41,660 nt of DNA, from positions 1-41,660 of the IMG/VR virus record IMGVR_UViG_2778261202_000006. One strand, given 5' to 3'. Both the position numbers and the translations under genes were made by a program. Of this stretch, positions 30,997 to 41,660 are shown in pieces. The DNA is from a virus. Lineage: Duplodnaviria > Heunggongvirae > Uroviricota > Caudoviricetes. How positions within the stretch are numbered: position 1 is the first letter of the stretch; each line of letters opens with the position of its first letter. The notes under the pieces were generated by a model. The model made no database searches. It was not told the origin of the DNA and saw only the letters and a program-made list of their open reading frames with translations.

Positions 30997-31135
30997 GACC
31001 TTTCTCCTTCTGCATCAGCTTCACTTTTTCCAACTCAGCCCGGAATCGACCAGGCTGCTTGAAGCTGGACAGGAAGCGATCACGTAGTATGTGTTTGTGA
31101 ATTTTGTCCTGGTAAGGACTGAGTTGTTTTGTCAT
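30989..31135 (-). CDS. Possible small ORF (48 aa) between cII and initiator
   Basis: ATG 31135; stop overlaps initiator start; no family recognised. Confidence 0.3.
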
Positions 31136-31167
31136 AATTACTCCTGTTGATAGATCCAGTAATGACC

Positions 31168-31461
31168 TCAGAATTCCATCTGGATTTGTTCAGAACGCTC
31201 GGTTGCCGCCGGGCGTTTTTTATTGGTGAGAATCGAAGCAACTTGTCGTGCCAATCGAGCCATGTCGTCGTCGACAACACCCCATTCAAGTACAGCAAGC
31301 AGCATTGAGAACTTTGGAATCCAGTCCCTCTTCCACCTGCTGATCTGCGACTTATCAACGCCCACAGCTTCCGCTGTCTTCTCAGTTCCAAGCATTGCGA
31401 TTTTGTTAAGCAACGCACTCTCGATTCGTAGAGCCTCGTTGCGTTTGTTTGCACGAACCAT
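31168..31461 (-). CDS. cII: CII transcriptional activator (lambda-type)
   Basis: From ATG 31461: [75 protein letters not shown].. matches lambda CII by recall. Confidence 0.9.
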
Positions 31462-31518
31462 ATGTAAGTATTTCCTTAACAAATAAGAAGTTAAGCGCAT
31501 CAACTTATGCGCGTTGTA

Positions 31519-31563
31519 TTCCCGCATTTCGGCGGGAATGAGGACCATGACTGTTAAAGAGCA
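31519..31563 (-). promoter_or_regulatory. nutR (boxA plus boxB hairpin)
   Basis: Minus-sense boxA TGCTCTTTAACAG followed by boxB hairpin TTCCCGCCGAAATGCGGGAA between cro and cII. Confidence 0.7.
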
Positions 31564-31569
31564 ATTTGC

Positions 31570-31755
31570 TTATGCCGCTTTGCGGTAAGCGCTTTCTTGA
31601 TACTTCAGGGCGCCAGCTGTAACGACTTCCAGTCGATAGGCGTCTTTCTCTGGGATGACTTCCTTCCACTGAGAGACTGCTGCGTCGCTAATGCCTAACG
31701 CTTTAGCTACAGCACGCTGGGTTCCGAAGTGGTCGATAACATCTTTCTTGTACAT
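31570..31755 (-). CDS. cro: Cro repressor (P22-type)
   Basis: 61 aa MYKKDVIDHFGTQRAVAKALGISDAAVSQWKEVIPEKDAYRLE.. matches P22 Cro by recall. Confidence 0.9.
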   Translation of the reverse strand: MYKKDVIDHFGTQRAVAKALGISDAAVSQWKEVIPEKDAYRLEVVTAGALKYQESAYRKAA

Positions 31756-31769
31756 AGACTCGCTCCGAA

Positions 31770-31835
31770 ATTAAAGAACACTTAAATTATCCACTAAAGG
31801 AATCTTAAGTCAAGTTTATTTAAGATGTCTTAACT
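31770..31835. promoter_or_regulatory. OR operator region (three P22 c2-type 18-bp operators) with divergent promoters
   Basis: ATTAAAGAACACTTAAAT (31770-31787), ACTAAAGGAATCTTAAGT (31793-31810), ATTTAAGATGTCTTAACT (31818-31835), all fitting ANTNAAG-N4-CTTNANT. Confidence 0.75.
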
Positions 31836-32486
31836 ATGAAAACTCAATTGATGGGAGAGCGCATTCGCGCTCGGAGAAAAGAACTCAAGATCAGGCAGGC
31901 CGCACTTGGAAAGATGGTCGGCGTGTCTAATGTTGCCATATCTCAGTGGGAACGCTCTGAGACAGAGCCAAATGGAGAGAATCTTCTCGCCCTGGCTAAT
32001 GCGTTGAAGTGTTCCCCTGACTATCTGATGAAAGGAGAGGAAAGTCTTTCAAACATTGCCTATCACAGTAGGCATGATCCAAGAGGGTCATACCCTCTGA
32101 TTAGCTGGGTGAGCGCAGGATGCTGGATGGAAGCTGTAGAACCATATCATAAGCGTGCAATAGATAACTGGTACGATACAACCGTAGACTGTTCAGAAGA
32201 TTCGTTTTGGTTGGACGTGAAGGGAGACTCAATGACGGCTCCGGCCGGTCTCAGTATCCCTGAAGGAATGATAATACTCGTCGATCCTGAAGTAGAGCCG
32301 CGTAACGGGAAACTGGTAGTTGCAAAGCTCGAAGGAGAAAACGAGGCAACTTTCAAGAAGTTAGTTATTGATGCAGGCAGGAAGTTTCTAAAACCACTTA
32401 ACCCACAATATCCGATGATCGAGATCAACGGAAACTGCAAAATCATCGGCGTAGTTGTCGATGCAAAACTAGCAAACCTTCCATAA
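31836..32486 (+). CDS. c2: Prophage repressor C2 (CI-like, HTH plus S24 peptidase autocleavage domain)
   Basis: 216 aa; matches P22 c2 repressor by recall (..MGERIRARRKELKIRQAALGKMVGVSNVAISQWERSETEPNGENLLAL..); Ser/Lys dyad region GDSM..K. Confidence 0.95.
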   Translation: MKTQLMGERIRARRKELKIRQAALGKMVGVSNVAISQWERSETEPNGENLLALANALKCSPDYLMKGEESLSNIAYHSRHDPRGSYPLISWVSAGCWMEAVEPYHKRAIDNWYDTTVDCSEDSFWLDVKGDSMTAPAGLSIPEGMIILVDPEVEPRNGKLVVAKLEGENEATFKKLVIDAGRKFLKPLNPQYPMIEINGNCKIIGVVVDAKLANLP

Positions 32487-32510
32487 GGGGGCATTCGCCC
32501 CTTTTTTTTA
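32487..32510 (+). terminator. Intrinsic terminator after repressor gene
   Basis: GGGGC-ATTC-GCCCC hairpin followed by TTTTTTTT. Confidence 0.65.
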
Positions 32511-32529
32511 TTTCCTTTAAAAATCAAAG

Positions 32530-32610
32530 CCAAACTTAAGTTACGAAAGAAAATTTAAGTTTTCTTCAAAAATACTCTTGACCATTAATTAAAGAGATCT
32601 TAAATTTAAG
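32530..32610. promoter_or_regulatory. Probable OL operator/pL region
   Basis: ATTAAAGAGATCTTAAAT (32588-32605) fits the same operator consensus; further TTAAG half-site-like repeats upstream; lies before nutL and N. Confidence 0.5.
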
Positions 32611-32652
32611 CCATCAGCAGGACGCTGGTAGCCAAACGGAACAGATTGGCAG

Positions 32653-32693
32653 GCTCTTTAACATTGATGGGATTGTCCCGCCGAAATGCGGGA
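32653..32693 (+). promoter_or_regulatory. nutL (boxA plus boxB hairpin)
   Basis: boxA GCTCTTTAACA (32653-32663) and boxB hairpin TCCCGCCGAAATGCGGGA (32676-32693), same boxB as nutR. Confidence 0.7.
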
Positions 32694-32800
32694 ACCAAAG
32701 AGTAGTTGGCTTTGGGGTGACGTGAAGTGCAGCTGCACGACGGCAACCGGAAGATAAGCACCCGGCGCGTCACCGCCAAAGTCAATCATCGGAGGTCAAC

Positions 32801-33100
32801 ATGACAGTAGTCATTACATATCTGGCTGACGATAACGCCAGAAATCGCCGCAGAGCACGCAGACAGGATCAACGTGAACAGGAAATGCAAGAGCAGCGAC
32901 TGGCGCGAAAAATTGCGCTAAAGCTCTCTGGTTGCGTCAGAGCAGATAAAGCAGCATCACTCGGAAGCCTTCGCTGCAAGAAGGCAGAAGAAGTCGAGCG
33001 TAAACAGAACCGTATTTACTACCGGAAGCCACGGAGTGAAATGGGTGTGACTTGTGTTGGTCGCCAGAAAATAAAATTAGGCAGCAAACCACTTATTTGA
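32801..33100 (+). CDS. N: N-like transcription antiterminator (arginine-rich motif)
   Basis: 99 aa; N-terminal arginine-rich motif NARNRRRARRQDQRE; first gene after nutL; GGAGG SD. Confidence 0.65.
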   Translation: MTVVITYLADDNARNRRRARRQDQREQEMQEQRLARKIALKLSGCVRADKAASLGSLRCKKAEEVERKQNRIYYRKPRSEMGVTCVGRQKIKLGSKPLI

Positions 33101-33108
33101 GGTGAGAT

Positions 33109-33267
33109 ATGAACATGAATGTATCTTTAACAAAATCATTGCTTGCCAGTCGTGGATTAAAGATGAAACCAACAAAAAGTTATAAAAACGGCAGTCGATG
33201 CTACTCAGTTTCAGGATGGAGCGGAGAGTACACAATCAAAGGTATTTTGTGGCAGTTAGGATTTTGA
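33109..33267 (+). CDS. Possible small ORF (52 aa)
   Basis: ATG with GAGGTGAG SD directly after N; not in ORF track because under 60 aa. Confidence 0.3.
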   Translation: MNMNVSLTKSLLASRGLKMKPTKSYKNGSRCYSVSGWSGEYTIKGILWQLGF

Positions 33268-33300
33268 TGATTCTTTTGGCAGCAAGACACAGAGGTGAAT

Positions 33301-33435
33301 ATGAACGCAGTTGAGTTTACAAAATGGATGGCAGAGCAAGATATCACAGGAGCCGACGAAAAGGCTGTGTACTACATGGCTATGCTATGGATTCACAAAG
33401 CAAAAGAGGCTGCAAATGCTCTTGGAGGTGAGTGA
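33301..33435 (+). CDS. Possible small ORF (44 aa)
   Basis: ATG with AGAGGTGA SD; stop overlaps next start. Confidence 0.3.
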   Translation: MNAVEFTKWMAEQDITGADEKAVYYMAMLWIHKAKEAANALGGE

Positions 33436-33623
33436 TGAAAGTAAAAATAACTGCTTCTAATACCAGTTTTGTTAGTGTTGGTGATATTACAGAAGTAATA
33501 ACAAACCATGATGGAACACAAGTTATGTGGTCTGATTTCTGTAAAAGATATGAGCGAGTTAGTTGGTGTAAACTCGTATGGGGCGTCGAATACGAAGAAT
33601 TACCTGAAATGCATGACGAATAA
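33435..33623 (+). CDS. Hypothetical protein (62 aa)
   Basis: ATG 33435 preceded by GGAGGTGAG; ORF track starts 3 nt earlier at GTG. Confidence 0.4.
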   Translation: MKVKITASNTSFVSVGDITEVITNHDGTQVMWSDFCKRYERVSWCKLVWGVEYEELPEMHDE

Positions 33624-33628
33624 GCACT

Positions 33629-33656
33629 GTGTATTCATTCCAACGAGTGAATACAC
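33629..33656 (+). other. Perfect 9-bp inverted repeat (GTGTATTCA ... TGAATACAC) with 10-nt spacer, no T-tract
   Basis: Read directly; lies between small ORF stop and tL1-like terminator. Confidence 0.5.
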
Positions 33657-33716
33657 GGAGCAATGTCGCTCGTAACTAAACAGGAGCCGACTTGTTCTGA
33701 TTATTGGAAATCTTCT

Positions 33717-33745
33717 TTGCCCTCCGATGTGGGGGCAATTTTTTT
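33717..33745 (+). terminator. Intrinsic terminator (tL1-like) in early-left operon
   Basis: TTGCCC-tccgatgtg-GGGCAA hairpin followed by TTTTTTT. Confidence 0.65.
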
Positions 33746-33757
33746 GACGGAGGATAT

Positions 33758-34069
33758 ATGAAATTACGTGTCTGGCATATCCCGCAAGTACCTATGAAGC
33801 CGTTCATTGTAGAAGTGGCAAGTGTTGAAGAGGGTGTTCGCCTGATGGACGCACTGGCTGATTATGACGCCTTTCAGTATGACAACAACATCAAGCCTGA
33901 TTACTGCAATGCTAACGGCCTTGAGATGTGGGATGAGAGCCTTACCGATGAAGATTTATCAGATATGGGGCTTACTGATCGCTGGGTGGATTGGTATAGC
34001 GAATGCCAATGTTACGACGACCCACGTAAATATCTCGAAAGCCTGAAAGAAGAAACATCAGCCGCCTAA
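33758..34069 (+). CDS. Hypothetical strongly acidic early protein (103 aa)
   Basis: ATG 33758 with GGAGGA SD; D/E-rich C-terminal half (..EMWDESLTDEDLSDMGLTDRWVDWYSECQCYDDPRKYLESLKEE..); six-frame ORF begins upstream at 33704 across the terminator. Confidence 0.5.
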   Translation: MKLRVWHIPQVPMKPFIVEVASVEEGVRLMDALADYDAFQYDNNIKPDYCNANGLEMWDESLTDEDLSDMGLTDRWVDWYSECQCYDDPRKYLESLKEETSAA

Positions 34070-34144
34070 GCGCGGCTTTACCGCATACCAATAACGCTTC
34101 ACTCGAGGCGTTTTCGTTATGCAATCAAACAGAAGGAGCATCCT

Positions 34145-34315
34145 ATGCAACAGTTCGCTATTGCAGGGGCGGCATCGGTTCGCCCTTTCAACCCAATTTT
34201 ATCGGTGCAGCATTCACGAAAAAACATTTTAACCGGAGCAGACTTTAAACAACCAAGAATGAAAAGTTTGCTCGAAAAGCTTTGGGATATTTTGAAACAA
34301 CAAGGCCGTCCATGA
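34145..34315 (+). CDS. cIII: CIII-like protein (FtsH inhibitor family)
   Basis: 56 aa, MQQFAIAG....SLLEKLWDILKQQGRP pattern resembles lambda CIII; not in ORF track because under 60 aa. Confidence 0.55.
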   Translation: MQQFAIAGAASVRPFNPILSVQHSRKNILTGADFKQPRMKSLLEKLWDILKQQGRP

Positions 34316-34419
34316 GTTTTACAGATAACTGGTCAGACGAAGAATTCATTCGTCAGATGAAAGAAATGCTCAATCAGCACAAAGAACAGGAGAAAGATGA
34401 TGATTCTGACTCTGAATGA
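34312..34419 (+). CDS. Possible micro-ORF (35 aa)
   Basis: ATG overlaps cIII stop (ATGA); acidic C-terminus. Confidence 0.25.
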   Translation: MSFTDNWSDEEFIRQMKEMLNQHKEQEKDDDSDSE

Positions 34420-34708
34420 TAAGCGTGAAATATCGCAAATAATCGCAAATTTTACTGATGAAGATTACGAACGAATCAACAGTGAAGTTGATCGCCTCTG
34501 CAAACGTTGCGACCCAATAAGCGAAATGCTTCGCTCATATAAACCAGATGAACACACTAAGGACGCTATCGACTGGCTGGAAGATGATGACTGTAACTAT
34601 CAGGAAAAAGCCGCTGAATGGTTCTGGGATGCAATAACCGAAAGAGTTAAGGCTGAATATGCCTTCGCAATATTCAAACGCAGACATATTTATGGAGAAG
34701 CTGCATGA
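34397..34708 (+). CDS. Hypothetical protein (103 aa)
   Basis: ATG start, operon context immediately upstream of recT. Confidence 0.5.
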   Translation: MMILTLNDKREISQIIANFTDEDYERINSEVDRLCKRCDPISEMLRSYKPDEHTKDAIDWLEDDDCNYQEKAAEWFWDAITERVKAEYAFAIFKRRHIYGEAA

Positions 34709-35607
34709 GCAATATCGTTGAATTCGTTAAACAGCAAGAGCAGTTATTCTGCGGAGCATTGACTGAACAGACGGTGACATGGGCTAAGGAAAGCCAGTTT
34801 GCAATTCAGTATTTCCAGAAAAACGATTACCTGGCTAAAACAGCACTGGCAAATCCAACCAGCGCACAGAACGCCATCATCAATGTTGCGGCGATCGGCA
34901 TCACCTTAAACCCGGCCAGCAAACTGGCTTATCTGGTTCCTCGCGACGGCATGGTGTGCCTTGATATCAGTTACATGGGATTACTTCATCTTGCGCAATC
35001 GACAGGATCAATTAAGTGGGGGCAATGCAAACTGGTGTACTCAAACGACACCTATGAATCAAATGGCCTTGATTCAGCACCAACCCACAAATACAACGCA
35101 TTTGGTGAGCGAGGCCCTATTGTTGGAGGTTATTGCACGGTTAAAACAGCAGATGGTGACTACCTGACTGAAGAAATGAGTCTGGCAGAAATTAAAGCTG
35201 TGGAAGCAACGAGCAAGGCAAAGAATGGACCGTGGAAGACATTCTGGGAAGAGATGGCGCGTAAAACCATAGTTAAACGCGCCAGCAAATACTGGCCTAA
35301 AGCCCAGCGACTGGATAATGCCATTCACCTGCTTAACGAAGATGAAGGTATGCATCAGGAACCAGTTATGCCGCACAAATCAGAGGAAGATATCCGCGAA
35401 GATGAACGGAAACGCCAGCAGGAAATTATGGAAAAAGCACAACTTCTTTGTGATGAAATGGCTCAGGCAGAAAACATGGATGATTTGAAGCGATATTTTG
35501 CAGAAGCATATCGCCTGACATCTGGAATGAAATTGCAGCAGAACGTACAAGCCATTTACATAGAATGCAAAGCGAAACTTGAGGTTGCCAGTGAGCAAAC
35601 TATATGA
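34705..35607 (+). CDS. recT: RecT-family single-strand annealing recombinase
   Basis: 300 aa; ..AIINVAAIGITLNPASKLAYLVPRDG..GPWKTFWEEMARKTIVKRASKYWP.. typical of RecT family. Confidence 0.8.
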   Translation: MSNIVEFVKQQEQLFCGALTEQTVTWAKESQFAIQYFQKNDYLAKTALANPTSAQNAIINVAAIGITLNPASKLAYLVPRDGMVCLDISYMGLLHLAQSTGSIKWGQCKLVYSNDTYESNGLDSAPTHKYNAFGERGPIVGGYCTVKTADGDYLTEEMSLAEIKAVEATSKAKNGPWKTFWEEMARKTIVKRASKYWPKAQRLDNAIHLLNEDEGMHQEPVMPHKSEEDIREDERKRQQEIMEKAQLLCDEMAQAENMDDLKRYFAEAYRLTSGMKLQQNVQAIYIECKAKLEVASEQTI

Positions 35608-36073
35608 AATAGCCAATGAATACGCAAAATTGATGGATTCAGATTTAGAGCCAGAGATGATTGCTGACACAATAGAAGGAATGGAAGGAGAATTTACCGA
35701 TAAAATAGAGCAACTTCTCGCCATTATTAAAAATGAATCTGGTTATGCTGAACGCCTCAAGGACGAGGCAAAGTCACTGAATGAACGAGCCGCAGTAATT
35801 CAAAATAAGATTGACAGCATTATGGCGTATATAGCGTCATCGCTTGAAATGGTTGGCAAGAAAAAGATTCGAGCAGGTATTCACCAGGTAACAATCCGCA
35901 AACCGTCAGAAACTGTAGAAATCATCGACTCAAGCGCCCTTCCTCCTGAATACGTTGAGTTTGAAACGACAATTAAAGCCGACAAACTGGCAATCAAACA
36001 CCAACTAAAAGCAGGAATAAATATCCCCGGCGCTCAACTCAAAGTTGGGAAACCTTCACTTCTTATCAAATAA
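35591..36073 (+). CDS. Sipho_Gp157-like protein (commonly paired with RecT)
   Basis: Likely GTG start 35591 (GAGG upstream); ORF track starts at TTG 35579; N-terminal ..KLYEIANEYAKLMDSDLEPEMIADTIEGMEGEF.. resembles Gp157 family. Confidence 0.55.
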   Translation: MSKLYEIANEYAKLMDSDLEPEMIADTIEGMEGEFTDKIEQLLAIIKNESGYAERLKDEAKSLNERAAVIQNKIDSIMAYIASSLEMVGKKKIRAGIHQVTIRKPSETVEIIDSSALPPEYVEFETTIKADKLAIKHQLKAGINIPGAQLKVGKPSLLIK

Positions 36074-36084
36074 CGGTATCGACT

Positions 36085-36399
36085 ATGAAAAAGACTCCAT
36101 GGGAGAAATGGGAAGTCGATTTCTTGTGCGAAGTAGCGGCAACAATGCCAGTTGAAGTTATCGCTGAAAAACTGGAAAGGACTGAAAAAGCAGTAATGGC
36201 GAAAGCAACAAGGATTGGAGCTGACATTGTTAGCCGACTTCGTGGAAGACGCTGGACAAGAGCTGAAGTATCACTTTTCGGTAAGTTCTCCGCAGAAGAA
36301 ATAGCAATTGCAACCTGCCGCTCAATTTATTCAGTAAGGGCTATGCGATACAAGCTAAAAAAACTCGATGAAGAAAGAGCAGGCATACGAATAAATTAA
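36085..36399 (+). CDS. Hypothetical protein with two internal ~40-aa repeats (helix-turn-helix-like)
   Basis: Repeats PWEKWEVDFLCEVAATMPVEVIAEKLERTEKAVMAKATRIG and RRWTRAEVSLFGKFSAEEIAIATCRSIYSVRAMRYKLKKL. Confidence 0.5.
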   Translation: MKKTPWEKWEVDFLCEVAATMPVEVIAEKLERTEKAVMAKATRIGADIVSRLRGRRWTRAEVSLFGKFSAEEIAIATCRSIYSVRAMRYKLKKLDEERAGIRIN

Positions 36400-36415
36400 C
36401 ATGGAATAATTAACA

Positions 36416-36697
36416 ATGAAGCTAAACATCGACCTCGGAAAATACGTTATTACCGGAACCAAACACGATCTGATTCTTAGCGAAAGAGGAATTATCAAAG
36501 AAGGTGAGAATGCAGGGAAAGAAACACTAAGCCGTATCGGTTATTACAGCAAGTTTGAGCATCTGGTTAAAGAGTTATGCAACCGTGAAATTCTGTTATC
36601 TCAGGCGCGGACGCTACAGGATATTCAGCAGCATATCGAGACTTTAGGTGAGTCACTTAGCATGGCTATTGACCAGTTCGTGGAGAGTAAATCATGA
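36416..36697 (+). CDS. Hypothetical protein (93 aa)
   Basis: ATG start, operon context. Confidence 0.45.
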
Positions 36698-36858
36698 GAG
36701 GAATTGCATACAATCCCGGCATTCTTCCGGCAGAAATGATTATTCGCCAACGCGTAAAGCCAATGCCATCGAGAGAGGAATTGCTTAAAAGAAAGAGTTT
36801 CGGTTCTGTTAATGACAACAAATATCTGAATGCGATGTGGCGGAGTGGGAAGAAATGA
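36694..36858 (+). CDS. Possible small ORF (54 aa)
   Basis: ATG overlaps previous stop; stop overlaps next ATG. Confidence 0.3.
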
Positions 36859-37304
36859 AACAAATGTCACTAATTGAGATGGATGGATTTCTGAAAGGTA
36901 AATGCATCCCCCGAGATTTAAAGGTTAACGAAACAAACGCTGAATATCTGGTGCGTAAGTTCGGTGAACTTGAATCAAAACTAGAAACGGCGTTGCGGGA
37001 GTGTCGTTCTGCTGGAATCACGATTGATAACCTTGAGGCTAAATGCGCGAAGATGGCTGCTGAAAATACCTCGCTTAAGCAATCTGAGAAGGAATTTAAT
37101 GACTTTTGTCGTGAGGAGTTTAGCGAATGGGAAGATGATGTTACTGAAACCCCAGCCACCGATGCTTTCCTGGCTGAAGTACGGGCGCAGGGCGTGGAGA
37201 TGGCTATGGAGCATATGCAGTCGAGCGGTTCGTTAACATTTGGAGATTGCTACATATCACTTAACGAGTTCGCCGCAGAGCTTCGCAAAGGAGGTAACCA
37301 GTGA
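36855..37304 (+). CDS. Hypothetical coiled-coil acidic protein (149 aa)
   Basis: ATG 36855 with GGAG-type SD; ORF track begins at GTG 36837. Confidence 0.5.
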
Positions 37305-37600
37305 GTGTATATCTCATTGATAAACGCCGACGTGGGCAACAAATACCACCTGTAGGAATTCCGAATCACACATGGTTTTGCGTACTTGATATCGATGGCA
37401 TGGATAAGTTTGTTGACACTCGTCATTACTGCGATACCGCAACAGCTACTCCGGCGAAAGCAAAGAAAATGGCTGCTCTGATAGAAAACTGGACTCCACC
37501 TGATGGGTGGTGCAATGGGAATGATCGAGATTGGCATGAAAAAATGAAGGGCTATATCTGCGATTTCTTACGTAAATGCAACGGATTCAGGGTGATGTGA
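37301..37600 (+). CDS. Hypothetical protein (99 aa)
   Basis: GTG start overlapping previous stop. Confidence 0.45.
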   Translation: MSVYLIDKRRRGQQIPPVGIPNHTWFCVLDIDGMDKFVDTRHYCDTATATPAKAKKMAALIENWTPPDGWCNGNDRDWHEKMKGYICDFLRKCNGFRVM

Positions 37601-37601
37601 C

Positions 37602-38336
37602 ATGAACAAGATTGACTATCAGGCACTGCGTGAAAAGGCAGAGAAAGCAACGTGTGGCGTGTGGTCGCTCGAATATGGAGAGGAGAGATTTGATGCTGGT
37701 GATGCGCTAATTCATCGTGAAGTTGTTGGATATCTTCCCATTTGCAGAATTGAAGGAGCGCATCCTGAAAGCGGTTTCGATGAAGATTTCCAAATAGAAC
37801 AGCAGGCCAATGCTGAATTCATCGCCGCAGCCAATCCAGCTACCGTGCTGGCACTGCTGGATGAACGGGAAAGAAACCAGCAATACATCAAACTCCGCGA
37901 CCAAGAGAACGAGGATATTGCGCTTACTGTTGGGGGGCTGCGCGTTGAACTAGAAGGCAAAGACAGCAAAATAGCCAATCTTACCGCCGAACGCGATGCT
38001 CTTCGTGAAGGTGAGATGGGCGACGCTAGGCATAGCAACACACGGGCCGCAGCTGATATCTACTTCCAACTGGTCGAGGAGTGCGAAATTCCTGCTGGCG
38101 GTTCTCTGGTCGAGTACGTTGACGATATGCGCGAGAAGCTGGAAGCCGCAGAGAAGCGCATTGCTGAGCTGGAGTTGCGGGAGGTTGTGCTTCCGCAATG
38201 CTATAGCATGTTGCATCGCGTCGATTTTGACGAGCCTTACCACACTGAAATGGTTTACAGGCAGCATCAGGTTCTTGAGGCACTGCACAACGCTGGAATA
38301 AACGTCACCGAAGCAGGTAAAGGAGAGGCATCATGA
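37602..38336 (+). CDS. Ead/Ea22-like early protein
   Basis: 244 aa; N-terminus MNKIDYQALREKAEKAT and central coiled coil typical of Ea22-like prophage proteins. Confidence 0.55.
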   Translation: MNKIDYQALREKAEKATCGVWSLEYGEERFDAGDALIHREVVGYLPICRIEGAHPESGFDEDFQIEQQANAEFIAAANPATVLALLDERERNQQYIKLRDQENEDIALTVGGLRVELEGKDSKIANLTAERDALREGEMGDARHSNTRAAADIYFQLVEECEIPAGGSLVEYVDDMREKLEAAEKRIAELELREVVLPQCYSMLHRVDFDEPYHTEMVYRQHQVLEALHNAGINVTEAGKGEAS

Positions 38337-38839
38337 GCACTATCACAAGAGAATGGCTGCAGCAGGCTATCAACGATTATGAAAGCGTTCGTGATGAGCT
38401 TCCTTTCGGGCTTGATGATTACCAGGGGAATATCCTGGCTGCCCTGCGTATCGCACTGGCATCGCTGGAAGCAGAGCCGGTGGCGTGGAAGGTAACATTC
38501 ACGCAAATTGACCGTGAATATAACACGTTCACTGGTATGTATTCTGACAAAGCAGAAGTCGAACGGTGGGTGCGGCTGCATAAAGCATGTAATTTTCGGG
38601 CAGATATAACACCGCTTTATACCGCCAAGCCAGTGCCGGTAACTCCGGATGGTTGGATAAGCTGTAGTGAGCGAATGCCGGATAAGTTAATTCCGGTAAT
38701 GGTCATGTATGAAGACGGTGAGATGTGGTCTGCAATGTGGAATGGCAATCGCTGGGATGATGGCACCGAATATCCGGATCCGCACTCAGTTACGCACTGG
38801 CGTGAAATGCCAGCAGCACCGCAGCAGGAGGTGAAGTGA
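38333..38839 (+). CDS. DUF551-domain protein
   Basis: C-terminal GWISCSERMPDKLIPVMVMYEDGEMWSAMWNGNRWDDG..VTHWREMP typical of DUF551. Confidence 0.6.
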   Translation: MSTITREWLQQAINDYESVRDELPFGLDDYQGNILAALRIALASLEAEPVAWKVTFTQIDREYNTFTGMYSDKAEVERWVRLHKACNFRADITPLYTAKPVPVTPDGWISCSERMPDKLIPVMVMYEDGEMWSAMWNGNRWDDGTEYPDPHSVTHWREMPAAPQQEVK

Positions 38840-39117
38840 TGGACTCCTTCGCGAAATATACGATTATTGACTGGATAGCATTCCTTCAGGTTTTGCTCAT
38901 CTGGTTTTATATGGCTTACAGGAGTGGGCAGTGGATTGTCAGTGTAGCCTGTAGCAAGGGATGGCGTTGGTGGAACCGAAAGAATAAAAAAGCACTAGCC
39001 TTGGATTCGTTTTACGAAGCATTCAATCTTAACAGCCTTCAGCCTGGTTCTGTCGTTGTAGTCACCACTCAAAGCGGCATGACCATTCAGATTCATAAAC
39101 CAAAAGAGGAAAAATGA
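38836..39117 (+). CDS. Hypothetical protein with one predicted transmembrane segment
   Basis: Hydrophobic IIDWIAFLQVLLIWFYMAY near N-terminus. Confidence 0.45.
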   Translation: MMDSFAKYTIIDWIAFLQVLLIWFYMAYRSGQWIVSVACSKGWRWWNRKNKKALALDSFYEAFNLNSLQPGSVVVVTTQSGMTIQIHKPKEEK

Positions 39118-39262
39118 TGTGGCCTATATGTGTTAATTGCGGACGGATGTGCCTATCTGGATGGTGCCGAAAGTGCGACAAATGCACGAAGAACAGACAA
39201 TAACAATCCTCGCATTCGCGGGGATTTCTTTTATCTGAACTCGCTACGGCGAGTTTTGTTTT

Positions 39263-39574
39263 ATGGAGATGATTATGGCCTGTTCAACATTCAACCCTTT
39301 AACGTTACAGAAATACCAGCCAGACCCTGAAGATTTATGCTCACTGTGTGGCGGAAATCATGGCAAAGCCGCCATGATCGAATGTAAGGACAAAATCAAC
39401 ATATGCCTTAATTGCGTTGATGTCCTCGTTGATATCAAAAATGAGAGAGAAGATAAAAAGCGTAGCGAGGCTGTTCGCGCCTTAGATTCATGGATGCGAG
39501 ATGGGTATAGTGCCGCGCAAATTTATGACTTAGCAATATCAAAAGGCGAAATACCAGGAGTGCGTATCGAATAA
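39263..39574 (+). CDS. Hypothetical Cys-containing protein (103 aa)
   Basis: ATG start; CSLCGG..C..C..C pattern; last gene before xis. Confidence 0.45.
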   Translation: MEMIMACSTFNPLTLQKYQPDPEDLCSLCGGNHGKAAMIECKDKINICLNCVDVLVDIKNEREDKKRSEAVRALDSWMRDGYSAAQIYDLAISKGEIPGVRIE

Positions 39575-39682
39575 GACGTAACCAACATTCGAATTGAAGA
39601 ACTGAAAGAACACCAAGCCGACTGATGGCGGTTTTTTATTACCTGATTTGCAGGTTCGATTCCCTATTCGGAGATAGCACTC

Positions 39683-39883
39683 ATGCAACACGAACTACAG
39701 CCTGATTCCCTGGTTGATTTGAAATTCATCATGGCCGATACTGGCTTCGGTAAAACCTTCATCTATGACCGGATTAAGTCCGGAGACCTGCCTAAAGCCA
39801 AAGTTATCCACGGGCGAGCAAGATGGTTATATCGTGACCATTGTGAATTCAAAAATAAGCTCTTAAGCCGCGCCAATGGGTAA
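39683..39883 (+). CDS. torI: Excisionase / recombination directionality factor (TorI-like winged-helix Xis)
   Basis: 66 aa basic protein, ..LKFIMADTGFGKTFIYDRIKSGDLPKAKVIHGRARWLYR.. ; terminal gene adjacent to att core. Confidence 0.8.
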   Translation: MQHELQPDSLVDLKFIMADTGFGKTFIYDRIKSGDLPKAKVIHGRARWLYRDHCEFKNKLLSRANG

Positions 39884-39956
39884 AATAGCGGGTAAAATAT
39901 TTCTCACATCTAAAAAACATCATTCCAATCAATCCCCTGCCGCTTCAAGTAGATGT

Positions 39957-39971
39957 CTGCAGGGGACACCA
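39957..39971 (+). other. Putative attR core: 15-nt match to the 3' end of a tRNA (acceptor stem plus CCA)
   Basis: CTGCAGGGGACACCA; resembles 3' end of tRNA-Arg(CCU) as recalled; lies between excisionase and host permease. Confidence 0.55.
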
Positions 39972-40412
39972 GATACCCTTCAAACGAAATCTACCTTCAC
40001 CCCGTAAAAGATGGGTTTGGCAGCACACTTGCCTTATATCTACTCATTTTTACTGCAACAGGTTGAAATCTCAGCACTGTCAGAAAGCGCTGATGACTAA
40101 ACAGCCCTGGGCCGGGCGATGTAACCATCACACAGAATCCTGATAGCGAAATATGGCGTGACTCGATACTTCACTCCGCAATGCATTCCTTGATGAATTC
40201 GCAGGACCGTGATACACGGGACAGGTCACTGAATGACGACAATGTCCTGGAAATCAGCGAACCGCGCATCTGAAGTACATTTGAGCGACTGTACCAGAAC
40301 ATGAATGAGGCGTTTGGATTAGGCGATTATTAGCAGGGCTAAGCATTTTACTATTATTATTTTCCGGTTGAGGGATATAGAGCTATCGACAACAACCGGA
40401 AAAAGTTTACGT

Positions 40413-41660
40413 CTATATTGCTGAAGGTACAGGCGTTTCCATAACTATTTGCTCGCGTTTTTTACTCAAGAAGAAAATGCCAAATAGCAACATCAGGCAG
40501 ACAATACCCGAAATTGCGAAGAAAACTGTCTGGTAGCCTGCGTGGTCAAAGAGTATCCCAGTCGGCGTTGAAAGCAGCACAATCCCAAGCGAACTGGCAA
40601 TTTGAAAACCAATCAGAAAGATCGTCGACGACAGGCGCTTATCAAAGTTTGCCACGCTGTATTTGAAGACGGATATGACACAAAGTGGAACCTCAATGGC
40701 ATGTAACAACTTCACTAATGAAATAATCCAGGGGTTAACGAACAGCGCGCAGGAAAGGATACGCAACGCCATAATCACAACTCCGATAAGTAATGCATTT
40801 TTTGGCCCTACCCGATTCACAAAGAAAGGAATAATCGCCATGCACAGCGCTTCGAGTACCACCTGGAATGAGTTGAGATAACCATACAGGCGCGTTCCTA
40901 CATCGTGTGATTCGAATAAACCTGCATAAAAGACAGGAAAAAGTTGTTGATCAAAAATGTTATAGAAAGACCACGTCCCCACAATAAATATGACGAAAAC
41001 CCAGAAGTTTCGATCCTTGAAAACTGCGATAAAATCCTCTTTTTTTACCCCTCCCGCATCTGCCGCTACGCACTGGTGATCCTTATCTTTAAAACGCATG
41101 TTGATCATCATAAATACAGCGCCAAATAGCGAGACCAACCAGAAGTTGATATGGGGACTGATACTAAAAAATATGCCGGCAAAGAACGCGCCAATAGCAT
41201 AGCCAAAAGATCCCCAGGCGCGCGCTGTTCCATATTCGAAATGAAAATTTCGCGCCATTTTTTCGGTGAAGCTATCAAGCAAACCGCATCCCGCCAGATA
41301 CCCCAAGCCAAAAAATAGCGCCCCCAGAATTAGACCTACAGAAAAATTGCTTTGCAGTAACGGTTCATAAACGTAAATCATAAACGGTCCGGTCAAGACC
41401 AGGATGAAACTCATACACCAGATGAGCGGTTTCTTCAGACCGAGTTTATCCTGAACGATGCCGTAGAACATCATAAATAGAATGCTGGTAAACTGGTTGA
41501 CCGAATAAAGTGTACCTAATTCCGTCCCTGTCAACCCTAGATGTCCTTTCAGCCAAATAGCGTATAACGACCACCACAGCGACCAGGAAATAAAAAAGAG
41601 AAATGAGTAACTGGATGCAAAACGATAGTACGCATTTCTGAATGGAATATTCAGTGCCAT
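40413..41660 (-). CDS. cscB: LacY-family oligosaccharide:H+ symporter (sucrose permease CscB-like), host gene
   Basis: 415 aa, 12-TM MFS protein with LacY-family motifs (GIVQDKLGLKKPLIW, FEYGTARAWGSFG); outside prophage. Confidence 0.8.
   Translation of the reverse strand: MALNIPFRNAYYRFASSYSFLFFISWSLWWSLYAIWLKGHLGLTGTELGTLYSVNQFTSILFMMFYGIVQDKLGLKKPLIWCMSFILVLTGPFMIYVYEPLLQSNFSVGLILGALFFGLGYLAGCGLLDSFTEKMARNFHFEYGTARAWGSFGYAIGAFFAGIFFSISPHINFWLVSLFGAVFMMINMRFKDKDHQCVAADAGGVKKEDFIAVFKDRNFWVFVIFIVGTWSFYNIFDQQLFPVFYAGLFESHDVGTRLYGYLNSFQVVLEALCMAIIPFFVNRVGPKNALLIGVVIMALRILSCALFVNPWIISLVKLLHAIEVPLCVISVFKYSVANFDKRLSSTIFLIGFQIASSLGIVLLSTPTGILFDHAGYQTVFFAISGIVCLMLLFGIFFLSKKREQIVMETPVPSAI

Follow-up and report, generated by a model that had tools for sequence, protein, structure and literature searches.

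A mosaic island of small early-left genes in an HK620/Sf6-type P22-like prophage of Escherichia coli

What is the dense run of small open reading frames (ORFs) that separates the recombination genes from the excisionase gene in a P22-like prophage: a set of independent accessory genes, the parts of one system, cargo for the host, or a product of chance and decay? We addressed this question in a 41,660-nucleotide (nt) stretch of viral DNA (IMG/VR record IMGVR_UViG_2778261202_000006; henceforth the window), where the run occupies positions 36085–39574 of the plus strand (henceforth the island) between the RecT/Gp157 pair and a TorI-type excisionase gene (xis). Our conclusion is that the island very probably forms the distal part of the pL (early-left) operon in a P22-like prophage of the HK620/Sf6 type at argW, i.e., the counterpart of the ea region of P22 and of the exo-xis region of lambda. 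An earlier reading of the locus, made from the letters alone (henceforth the sequence-only reading), had described it as a dense early-left island of small, overlapping ORFs in an accessory position, and that finding is correct but already known: this type of lambdoid accessory region has been described for P22, HK620, Sf6 and lambda, and nothing in the island amounts to a new kind of system. It adds little as a genomic feature: the same genes are already present, mostly at 93–100% identity, in sequenced phages and genomes.

The island comprises 11 ORFs in an unbroken chain, including one micro-ORF of 29 amino acids (aa) that falls under the usual ORF cut-offs (handles o1 to o9, with o8b for the micro-ORF, are those of Table 1). 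Consecutive genes meet in ATGA junctions (o2/o3, o3/o4, o6/o7 and o8/o8b), in a GTGA junction (o4/o5) or in a TGATG junction with a 1-nt overlap (o7/o8); o5 and o6 are separated by a 1-nt spacer, and the intergenic gaps measure 16 nt (o1/o2) and 71 nt (o8b/o9). As a chance control we used 500 dinucleotide-preserving shuffles: ORFs of 50 aa or more covered 0.99 of the plus strand against 0.34 ± 0.10 (maximum 0.69), and the six stop/start overlaps stood against a shuffle mean of 0.56 and a maximum of 5. On the minus strand of the island, ORF coverage was 0.50 with one overlapping junction. A Shine-Dalgarno-like motif was found at eight of ten ORF starts, and the frames are intact relative to full-length homologues. 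Wherever a diverged copy of an ORF was at hand, the ratio of nonsynonymous to synonymous substitution rates (dN/dS) lay between 0.05 and 0.58: the island genes are under purifying selection.

Most members are without an assigned function, as the sequence-only reading had stated, yet ten of the 11 ORFs belong to an existing Pfam or PHROG family. Specifically, ten have a PHROG match (E from 8e-23 to 3e-68) and eight pass the Pfam gathering cut-off, with DUF5405 found in o2 (25.6 bits against a gathering threshold of 21.6), DUF2737 in o3 (98.6 against 25), DUF7739 in o5 (68.4 against 27), Ead_Ea22 (PF13935) in o6 (102.5 against 27), DUF551 in o7 (65.7 against 22) and DUF4752 in o8 (123.6 against 27); the Ea22-like and DUF551 proteins recognised earlier are therefore borne out. 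The ORFs do not all fall into characterised families with housekeeping phage roles. NCBIfam gave nothing useful for any island product, PDB sequence searches with o2, o4, o6 and o7 returned no credible relative, and a literature search on the five DUF names (DUF5405, DUF2737, DUF7739, DUF551 and DUF4752) turned up no functional study beyond mentions of DUF551/YfdS. A search of 31000–41660 against Rfam at E ≤ 0.1 found no RNA family. No family match was found for two alternative ORFs (39130–39330 and 37996–38301) or for five of six long antisense ORFs. The sixth, on the minus strand at 37712–38041 inside the Ea22-like gene o6, matches phrog_13760 (E 3.6e-24); most likely this is a shadow ORF whose annotation as a gene in certain phage genomes gave rise to the PHROG family.

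We used megablast to compare a 3.9-kb stretch with phage records and 5426 complete E. coli genomes, and found pieces of the island in 569 phage records and in 3939 of the genomes. At least 80% of the stretch was covered by none of the phage records and by only one genome (strain D1, 81%). Copies at about 93% identity or more exist for nearly all ORFs (in HK140, Sf6, HK620, Gally and strain D1); for the o4 variant, such a copy was found only in a bacterial genome and not in the phages compared. Across ten related loci and lambda, breakpoints fall at gene borders (36394–36419, 36693, 37301 and 37603), inside o4 (in its variable middle), in the conserved first 30–50 nt of the Ea22 gene, at the DUF551 start (38636–38684) and at two linker blocks, A and B, that flank o9; the records of Sf6 and HK620 annotate boundary sequences at corresponding places. 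The sequence-only reading had proposed a presence/absence comparison, and across the ten loci most members turned out to be present or absent independently of one another. This mosaic pattern argues for independent cassettes and not for subunits of one machine.

Gene order matches in HK620, Sf6, HK140 and HK446, and the likeness to named phage regions extends to individual genes. In P22, where the order between erf-abc1-abc2 and xis is orf56, eaE, orf45, eaF, eaD, eaI, eaA, eaG, eaC, the ea region has the same position (from the recombination/anti-RecBCD genes to xis) and lies on the same strand as pL; Orf56 is equivalent to o3 (70% identity), and EaE, EaD and EaA resemble o4, o6 and o7, respectively. 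In Sf6 the corresponding stretch is gp24–gp19, where gp24, gp22 and gp19 are the equivalents of o2, o5 and o9 at 97–98% identity and gp23 that of o3 at 89%, while in HK620 the equivalent region is hkaI-hkaD, with HkaI, HkaH and HkaG corresponding to o3, o4 and o6. HK620 and Sf6 also share the same TorI excisionase and the same IntS integrase. What differs from P22, HK620 and Sf6 is that the cassettes are permuted differently and that the loci compared lack the DUF4752 gene and the 29-aa ORF, both present here; relative to P22, RecT and Gp157 replace Erf, Abc1 and Abc2, and eaF, eaI, eaG and eaC are absent. The exo-xis region of lambda (orf60a, orf63, orf61, ea22, ea8.5, orf55), which affects lysogenisation and induction, shares with the island its position and early expression, the N-terminal and coiled-coil part of Ea22, and blocks A and B at 96% nt identity around the orf55 slot. 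By contrast, this prophage has no homologues of orf60a, orf61, orf63 or ea8.5, and the C-terminal domain of o6, for which the PDB offered no match, is unlike the solved C-terminal domain of lambda Ea22.

The surroundings of the island are those of an early-left operon, as the sequence-only reading had placed it. The window is one HK620/Sf6-type P22-like prophage at argW in E. coli: an IntS-type integrase lies at 1–1158, the minus strand is filled with ORFs of morphogenesis size, and the final gene of the window is an oligosaccharide transporter of the major facilitator superfamily. From 31.8 kb onwards the plus strand carries, in order, cI, a terminator-like hairpin, a pL-like promoter, a nutL-like site, N, gp17, RecT, Gp157, the island, the TorI-type xis and the attachment-site (att) core. 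Because attP sits between the integrase and excisionase genes in HK620 and Sf6, these two genes are found at opposite ends of the prophage. Terminator-like sites are present at 33717 and 34093, between pL and the island, and a promoter scan of the coding strand of 36085–39574 found no sigma70-like promoter. Taken together with the analogy to lambda and P22, the lack of an internal sigma70-like promoter and the terminator-like sites ahead of the island suggest that it would be reached only by N-modified transcription.

Table 1. Positions of the island genes, the linker blocks and the flanking early-left and attachment features in the window.
Feature	Position	Strand	Size, basis or remark
cI repressor (S24 peptidase and helix-turn-helix)	just upstream of pL-like promoter	+	
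pL-like promoter	32578–32606	+	promoter scan
boxA-like GGCTCTTTAA (nutL-like)	about 32652–32661	+	sequence reading
boxB-like hairpin (nutL-like)	32677–32694	+	sequence reading
N antiterminator gene	32801–33100	+	phrog_271 E 6e-36; Pfam N_peptide below cut-off
gp17, P22 gene-17 superinfection exclusion family	between N and RecT	+	
Recombination module RecT and Gp157	34705–36073	+	Pfam RecT E 1.7e-33; Sipho_Gp157 E 1.5e-36
o1	36085–36399	+	104 aa
o2	36416–36697	+	93 aa
o3	36694–36858	+	54 aa
o4	36855–37304	+	149 aa
o5	37301–37600	+	99 aa
o6	37602–38336	+	244 aa
o7	38333–38839	+	168 aa
o8	38839–39117	+	92 aa
o8b	39114–39203	+	29 aa
Linker block A	39199–39273	+	75 nt; two terminator-like hairpins (39205–39226, 39237–39256); left border of cassette slot
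o9	39275–39574	+	99 aa
Linker block B	39574–39640	+	67 nt; orf55-like remnant and hairpin with T-run (39615–39640); right border of cassette slot
TorI-type excisionase (xis)	39683–39883	+	66 aa; 100% identical to HK620 HkaC and Sf6 gp18, both annotated TorI
attR core CTGCAGGGGACACCA	39957–39971	+	argW positions 61–75, i.e., last 15 nt of argW

The most concrete functional lead among the cassettes concerns o4. Its homologues place the start at ATG 36855 and rule out GTG 36837. Of the acidic coiled-coil protein proposed from the sequence, the acidity holds (29 aspartate and glutamate against 18 lysine and arginine residues), while matches to coiled-coil families are weak. Alignments identify o4 as a member of the family of P22 EaE, HK97 gp37 and HK446 gp27 (phrog_614, E 2e-61), in which an N-terminal part of 63 aa, a 15-residue block and an LRKGGNQ tail are conserved and the segments between them are variable. 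HK446 gp27 is Oad2, which binds and inhibits the P2 OLD abortive-infection tRNase, is alone enough for its phenotype, has P22 EaE as a relative and in some cases occurs fused to Ea22; an HK75 homologue, 54% identical to Oad2, fails to protect against P2 OLD (bioRxiv 10.64898/2026.07.10.737580, a July 2026 preprint). Over its full length o4 is 56% identical to Oad2 (E 5e-57): the first 63 aa are nearly identical, the 15-residue block and the tail are held in common, and the middle and C-terminal segments diverge. Identity to P22 EaE is 64% over residues 60–113, its conserved block, and identity to the HK75 homologue reaches 71%. Because o4 is closer to this variant, inactive on P2 OLD, we leave its specific target unassigned. 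The upstream neighbours are also the same, HK446 having the DUF5405-DUF2737-gp37-like triplet of o2-o3-o4, and the o3-o4 pair (DUF2737, then a gp37-like gene) recurs in HK446, HK75, HK620, P22 and HK97-type phages. At least 7644 clusters at 90% identity belong to the EaE/gp37 family, fusions to Ead/Ea22 among them, and this size together with the Ea22 fusions fits a fast-diversifying binder. The earlier claim that such islands are hotspots for host-takeover and anti-defence genes agrees with the literature and, through the relation of o4 to Oad2, becomes concrete for one member; the Oad2 report shows that the recombination-proximal hotspot does hold inhibitors of host immunity. From a family so large and variable, variants like o4 offer inexpensive candidates where inhibitors of other OLD-like systems are sought.

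At the other end of the island, o9 (phrog_3680, E 2.7e-68) is the equivalent of Sf6 gp19, a protein recorded as similar to 933W L0063. Its start is most likely at 39275, judging from homologues, which open with MACSTF. Cysteine-rich small proteins had been predicted here, and in o9 C22, C25, C44 and C47 are invariant among 22 sequences, with CxxC-x18-CxxC spacing. The predicted layout is an N-terminal ClpX-type C4 zinc ribbon followed by a long helix and a conserved C-terminal tail. The Pfam model zf-C4_ClpX (PF06689) matched 16 of the 22 family members (best E 0.0013), always under the gathering score (for o9 itself, 14.5 bits against a threshold of 27); the five best PDB matches of the family profile were all ClpX (E 0.016), and hhalign against the ClpX N-terminus gave a probability of 92.9%. 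ClpX is thus the only consistent match of the family in Pfam and the PDB, and the N-terminal zinc-binding domains are alike in motif (CSLCG...ICLNCVD in o9, CSFCG...ICDECVD in ClpX). Unlike ClpX, o9 has no AAA+ module, and it has a distinct conserved N-terminal YQPDPEDL motif and its own C-terminal tail. In the AlphaFold2 (AF2) model, the predicted local distance difference test (pLDDT) is 55–59 in the zinc region, where the model is unreliable, and a Foldseek search was uninformative. Homology to lambda Ea8.5, which has the same general position and a zinc motif, was rejected (hhalign probability 0.5%).

In lambda, the slot filled by o9 holds orf55, and this swappable slot is bordered by two short non-coding blocks. 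Block A is 96–98% identical in lambda (where it lies between ea8.5 and orf55), HK140, D1, Gally and Sf6, whatever gene follows, and in JEP4 it is conserved within an 86%-identical match. Block B is 93–98% identical in lambda, P22, HK620, Sf6, HK140, D1, Gally, JEP4 and JNE132847; its lambda copy takes in the end of orf55 together with the spacer ahead of xis, and here positions 39575–39619 are the last 15 codons of a lambda-orf55-like gene, the orf55 tail translating at 100% identity. The two blocks flank an orf55-like gene in HK140, D1, Gally and JEP4, an o9 homologue in Sf6 and o9 itself in the window. HK140 annotates a rho-independent terminator at the place homologous to block B, which is the probable end of the pL-distal transcription unit. 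The predicted folding of the intergenic sequence 39575–39682 is no stronger than that of shuffles (z = 0.40). Of the two blocks, P22 and HK620 share only block B, and in P22 it sits at the place annotated as the aI RNA terminator.

The first gene of the island, o1 (phrog_11492 and phrog_323), had been read as a tandem-repeat helix-turn-helix (HTH) protein. The two halves do not align with each other significantly (score 20 against a shuffle mean of 21.4), so that the repeat had to be demonstrated through the family alignment, where the motif W-x3-E...EIA..t.RS..sV is clear, occurring twice in o1 and three times in relatives of 151–153 aa. Sigma70_r4_2 matched eight of 14 family members (best E 1.4e-7), the top PDB match of the family profile was the LuxR-type HTH of NarL (E 0.0057), and the AF2 model has two three-helix units (mean pLDDT 81). 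Searched with Foldseek, this model gave no significant PDB match (best E 0.1, in a list dominated by bipartite HTH and Myb domains); against BFVD it gave 19 matches at E ≤ 1e-3, which are phage relatives, some named Myb-like, GcrA or regulator. Family profile and model together identify o1 as a protein of two Myb/sigma70-region-4-like HTH units, conserved with a dN/dS of 0.05–0.14.

Directly after the recombination module, o1 takes the slot of Abc1 in P22, an HTH protein with counter-defence and cell-death-trigger phenotypes. The two proteins are similar in size (about 95–104 aa), in having two HTH units and in being encoded by the first gene after the recombinase module, and one phage record (Gally) annotates an o1 homologue as Abc1-like. 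A hidden Markov model of the o1 repeat unit matched the C-terminal HTH of P22 Abc1 with E 4.8e-6 in a set of 1639 sequences, over the 24-residue HTH core only; hhalign gave a probability of 23%, and the shared motif is generic for sigma70-region-4/LuxR-type HTHs. Straightforward orthology with Abc1 was rejected at the BLAST level (no tblastn match), and the window contains no homologue of the partner protein Abc2. More broadly, BLAST recovered no counterpart of the P22 genes abc2, abc1, erf, arf, kil, c3 or ral in this prophage, whose region from N to Gp157 lies at 32800–36073. We consider that o1 may work like an Abc1-type small HTH protein, membership of that family being unproven. The PHROG label on the adjacent RecT and Gp157 module is 'Mu Gam-like end protection'.

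Exchange below the level of whole genes is seen in o6 and o7. The Ead_Ea22 match of o6 spans residues 3–191, i.e., the N-terminal and coiled-coil part that it shares with lambda Ea22 (58% identity over 74 aa, E 1e-22), P22 EaD and HK620 HkaG, and to which a swappable C-terminal domain is attached; residues 193–242 match a different gene context in JEP4, and dN/dS is 0.09–0.55. The Ea22 proteins of lambda and Stx phages are tetrameric and favour lysogeny, by a mechanism that is not known. In the EaA-type protein o7, which has its DUF551 domain at residues 107–164, residues 1–47 are 100% identical to HK140 gp34 (a 104-aa protein), and the same holds for residues 102–168 and the C-terminal end of EaA from phage Gally, a protein of 267 aa. 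The break falls at a 49-nt block at the DUF551 start that is kept at 89–98% identity in HK620, HK140, P22 and JNE132847, and P22 EaA matches both ends of o7 weakly. As judged from these alignments, o7 is a domain-level chimera of modules found apart elsewhere. DUF551 also occurs in YfdS of CPS-53; supplied in excess along with YfdQ and YfdR, this protein dampens the initiation of replication.

Downstream of o7, the DUF4752 protein o8 (Pfam E 3.4e-36) is 95–98% identical in D1, Gally and JEP4 (dN/dS 0.23–0.28). The single transmembrane segment ascribed earlier to the product of 38836–39117 is plausible, and only the start needed correction: homologues favour ATG 38839 over GTG 38836. Kyte-Doolittle hydropathy in a 19-residue window peaks at 1.78 at residues 8–26, a segment that is probably membrane-spanning. 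The coupled micro-ORF o8b (MMWPICVNCGRMCLSGWCRKCDKCTKNRQ) has six cysteines in 29 aa and probably forms a zinc knuckle; it has no PHROG, Pfam or NCBIfam match, and tblastn located it in 28 phage records. It also stands at the end of a small operon in the unrelated virulent siphoviruses Deseoctovirus C1 and Skatevirus KFS-SE2 at 72% nt identity, with eight synonymous and six nonsynonymous codon changes, five cysteines kept and the pattern MWPIC..CGRMCL..WCRKCDK preserved. The corresponding position carries no annotated feature in several phage records.

The remaining products are small DUF proteins. The DUF5405 protein o2 (phrog_154, E 1.6e-31), equivalent to Sf6 gp24 and HK446 gp29, is 98% identical to the Sf6 and HK140 copies (dN/dS 0.08–0.26). 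With five cysteines, the DUF7739 protein o5 (Pfam E 8.6e-19; phrog_1239, E 5e-54) is equivalent to Sf6 gp22 and HK75 gp27 and 98–100% identical in Sf6, D1 and JNE132847 (dN/dS 0.19). The most widely conserved member of the island is the DUF2737 protein o3 (Pfam E 1.8e-28), equivalent to HK97 gp38, HK620 HkaI and P22 Orf56; it was found in seven of the eight loci of the comparison matrix, always immediately upstream of an EaE/gp37-type gene (so annotated in HK446 and HK75), and its dN/dS against P22 is 0.14. As small and abundant proteins, o9, o8b and o3, this near-universal partner of EaE, are reasonable entries for a screening panel; together with the o4 variant they make up the list of candidates in which the practical value of the island lies.

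The course of events that we favour would begin with transcription starting at pL after infection or induction. N, acting at nutL, would make the transcript resistant to termination, so that transcription would pass gp17, RecT and Gp157 into the eleven small genes, which would be translated as a coupled chain. Each gene would be an independent and presumably dispensable accessory unit, whether as a whole gene or as a domain, and lambdoid phages would swap these cassettes through recombination where gene starts and short linker blocks are conserved. Early in infection, each product would probably bind DNA or one protein, of the host or of a rival element. Specifically, o4 may be a stoichiometric inhibitor of the Oad2/EaE type, directed at an OLD-class nuclease or at a comparable sensor responding to phage recombination or anti-RecBCD functions; o1 may be a DNA binder with two HTH units that fills the Abc1 slot, o6 an oligomeric coiled-coil protein of the Ea22 type that biases towards lysogeny, and o9 a ClpX-type zinc-ribbon protein.

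Several points weigh against this interpretation. For seven of the eleven products there is no lead to a function; the zinc ribbon of o9 scores below the Pfam gathering threshold and is poorly modelled; the link between o1 and Abc1 is weak on all the counts given above, including the missing abc2; o4 lies nearer to the HK75 variant than to Oad2; the dependence on N is drawn from what is known of lambda and P22 rather than from expression of the prophage itself; and the pL and nutL assignments come from resemblance to consensus sequences. We give a small but real weight to the possibility that at least one unassigned cassette is a new kind of early host-takeover factor, the leads being that the o9 family is a free-standing mimic of the ClpX zinc-binding domain, or that the o4 variant blocks a defence different from P2 OLD, either of the OLD class or a related ABC-ATPase/TOPRIM system. 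If this were true, o9 could pair with the ClpX N-domain or compete against it, retuning ClpXP substrates or adaptors in the lysis-lysogeny decision. A lysogenic-conversion or defence island, expressed from the repressed prophage and protecting the host through superinfection exclusion or an anti-phage system, strikes us as improbable. Prophage regions beside att sites do often carry such cargo, the neighbouring gp17 belongs to a superinfection-exclusion family, o8 looks membrane-anchored, and yfdQ and yfdS of CPS-53, a prophage remnant at argW, affect stress tolerance and the initiation of replication in the host. Against this, no PADLOC defence model matched any of the ten proteins, the promoter scan found no sigma70-like promoter on the coding strand of the island, overlapping codons tie its genes to the pL operon, the homologous regions of lambda and P22 are early lytic transcripts, and one family member, Oad2, acts in anti-defence and not in defence.

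The same overlapping codons, i.e., tight translational coupling, could be taken to indicate one coherent multi-protein system, such as a replication-control or DNA-modification complex like yfdQRST, whose products in CPS-53 act jointly on DnaA, and the recurrence of the o2-o3-o4 triplet and of the o3-o4 pair in other phages would agree with it. We regard this as less probable still, given that the members come and go mostly independently across the ten loci, that a single genome out of 5426 retains at least 80% of the stretch, that HK446 gp27 acts alone, and that Pfam and NCBIfam found no enzyme or ATPase domain in any product. Chance ORFs or decayed pseudogenes of a cryptic prophage would account for the conserved 3' remnant of orf55 in block B, for truncated copies elsewhere (the Ea22-like gene of strain D1 is flagged partial) and for the loss of three cysteines from the o8b copy in JEP4; this explanation is effectively refuted by family matches down to E 3e-68, by an ORF density and a number of overlapping junctions above all or nearly all of the shuffles, by dN/dS well under 1 and by frames that show no disruption. 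The early-left accessory region of the HK620/Sf6 type accordingly remains the interpretation that we prefer.

Two further observations concern the neighbourhood of the island. Upstream of RecT, a 35-aa ORF (34312–34419) shares 86% of its first 21 residues with HK446 gp33 and differs at the C-terminus; HK446 gp33 is sufficient to trigger P2 OLD (bioRxiv 10.64898/2026.07.10.737580). Downstream, 19 nt before the start of torI, the sequence TTGCAGGTTCGATTCC (39648–39663) is an exact copy of argW positions 46–61. This copy and the att core that follows torI (argW 61–75) are contiguous in the tRNA, so that torI reads as a wedge of about 293 bp within a 30-nt tRNA 3' half. The first of these pieces overlaps a promoter annotated in the HK620 record as the cII-activated pI, and it is conserved in HK620, Sf6 and strain JNE132847.

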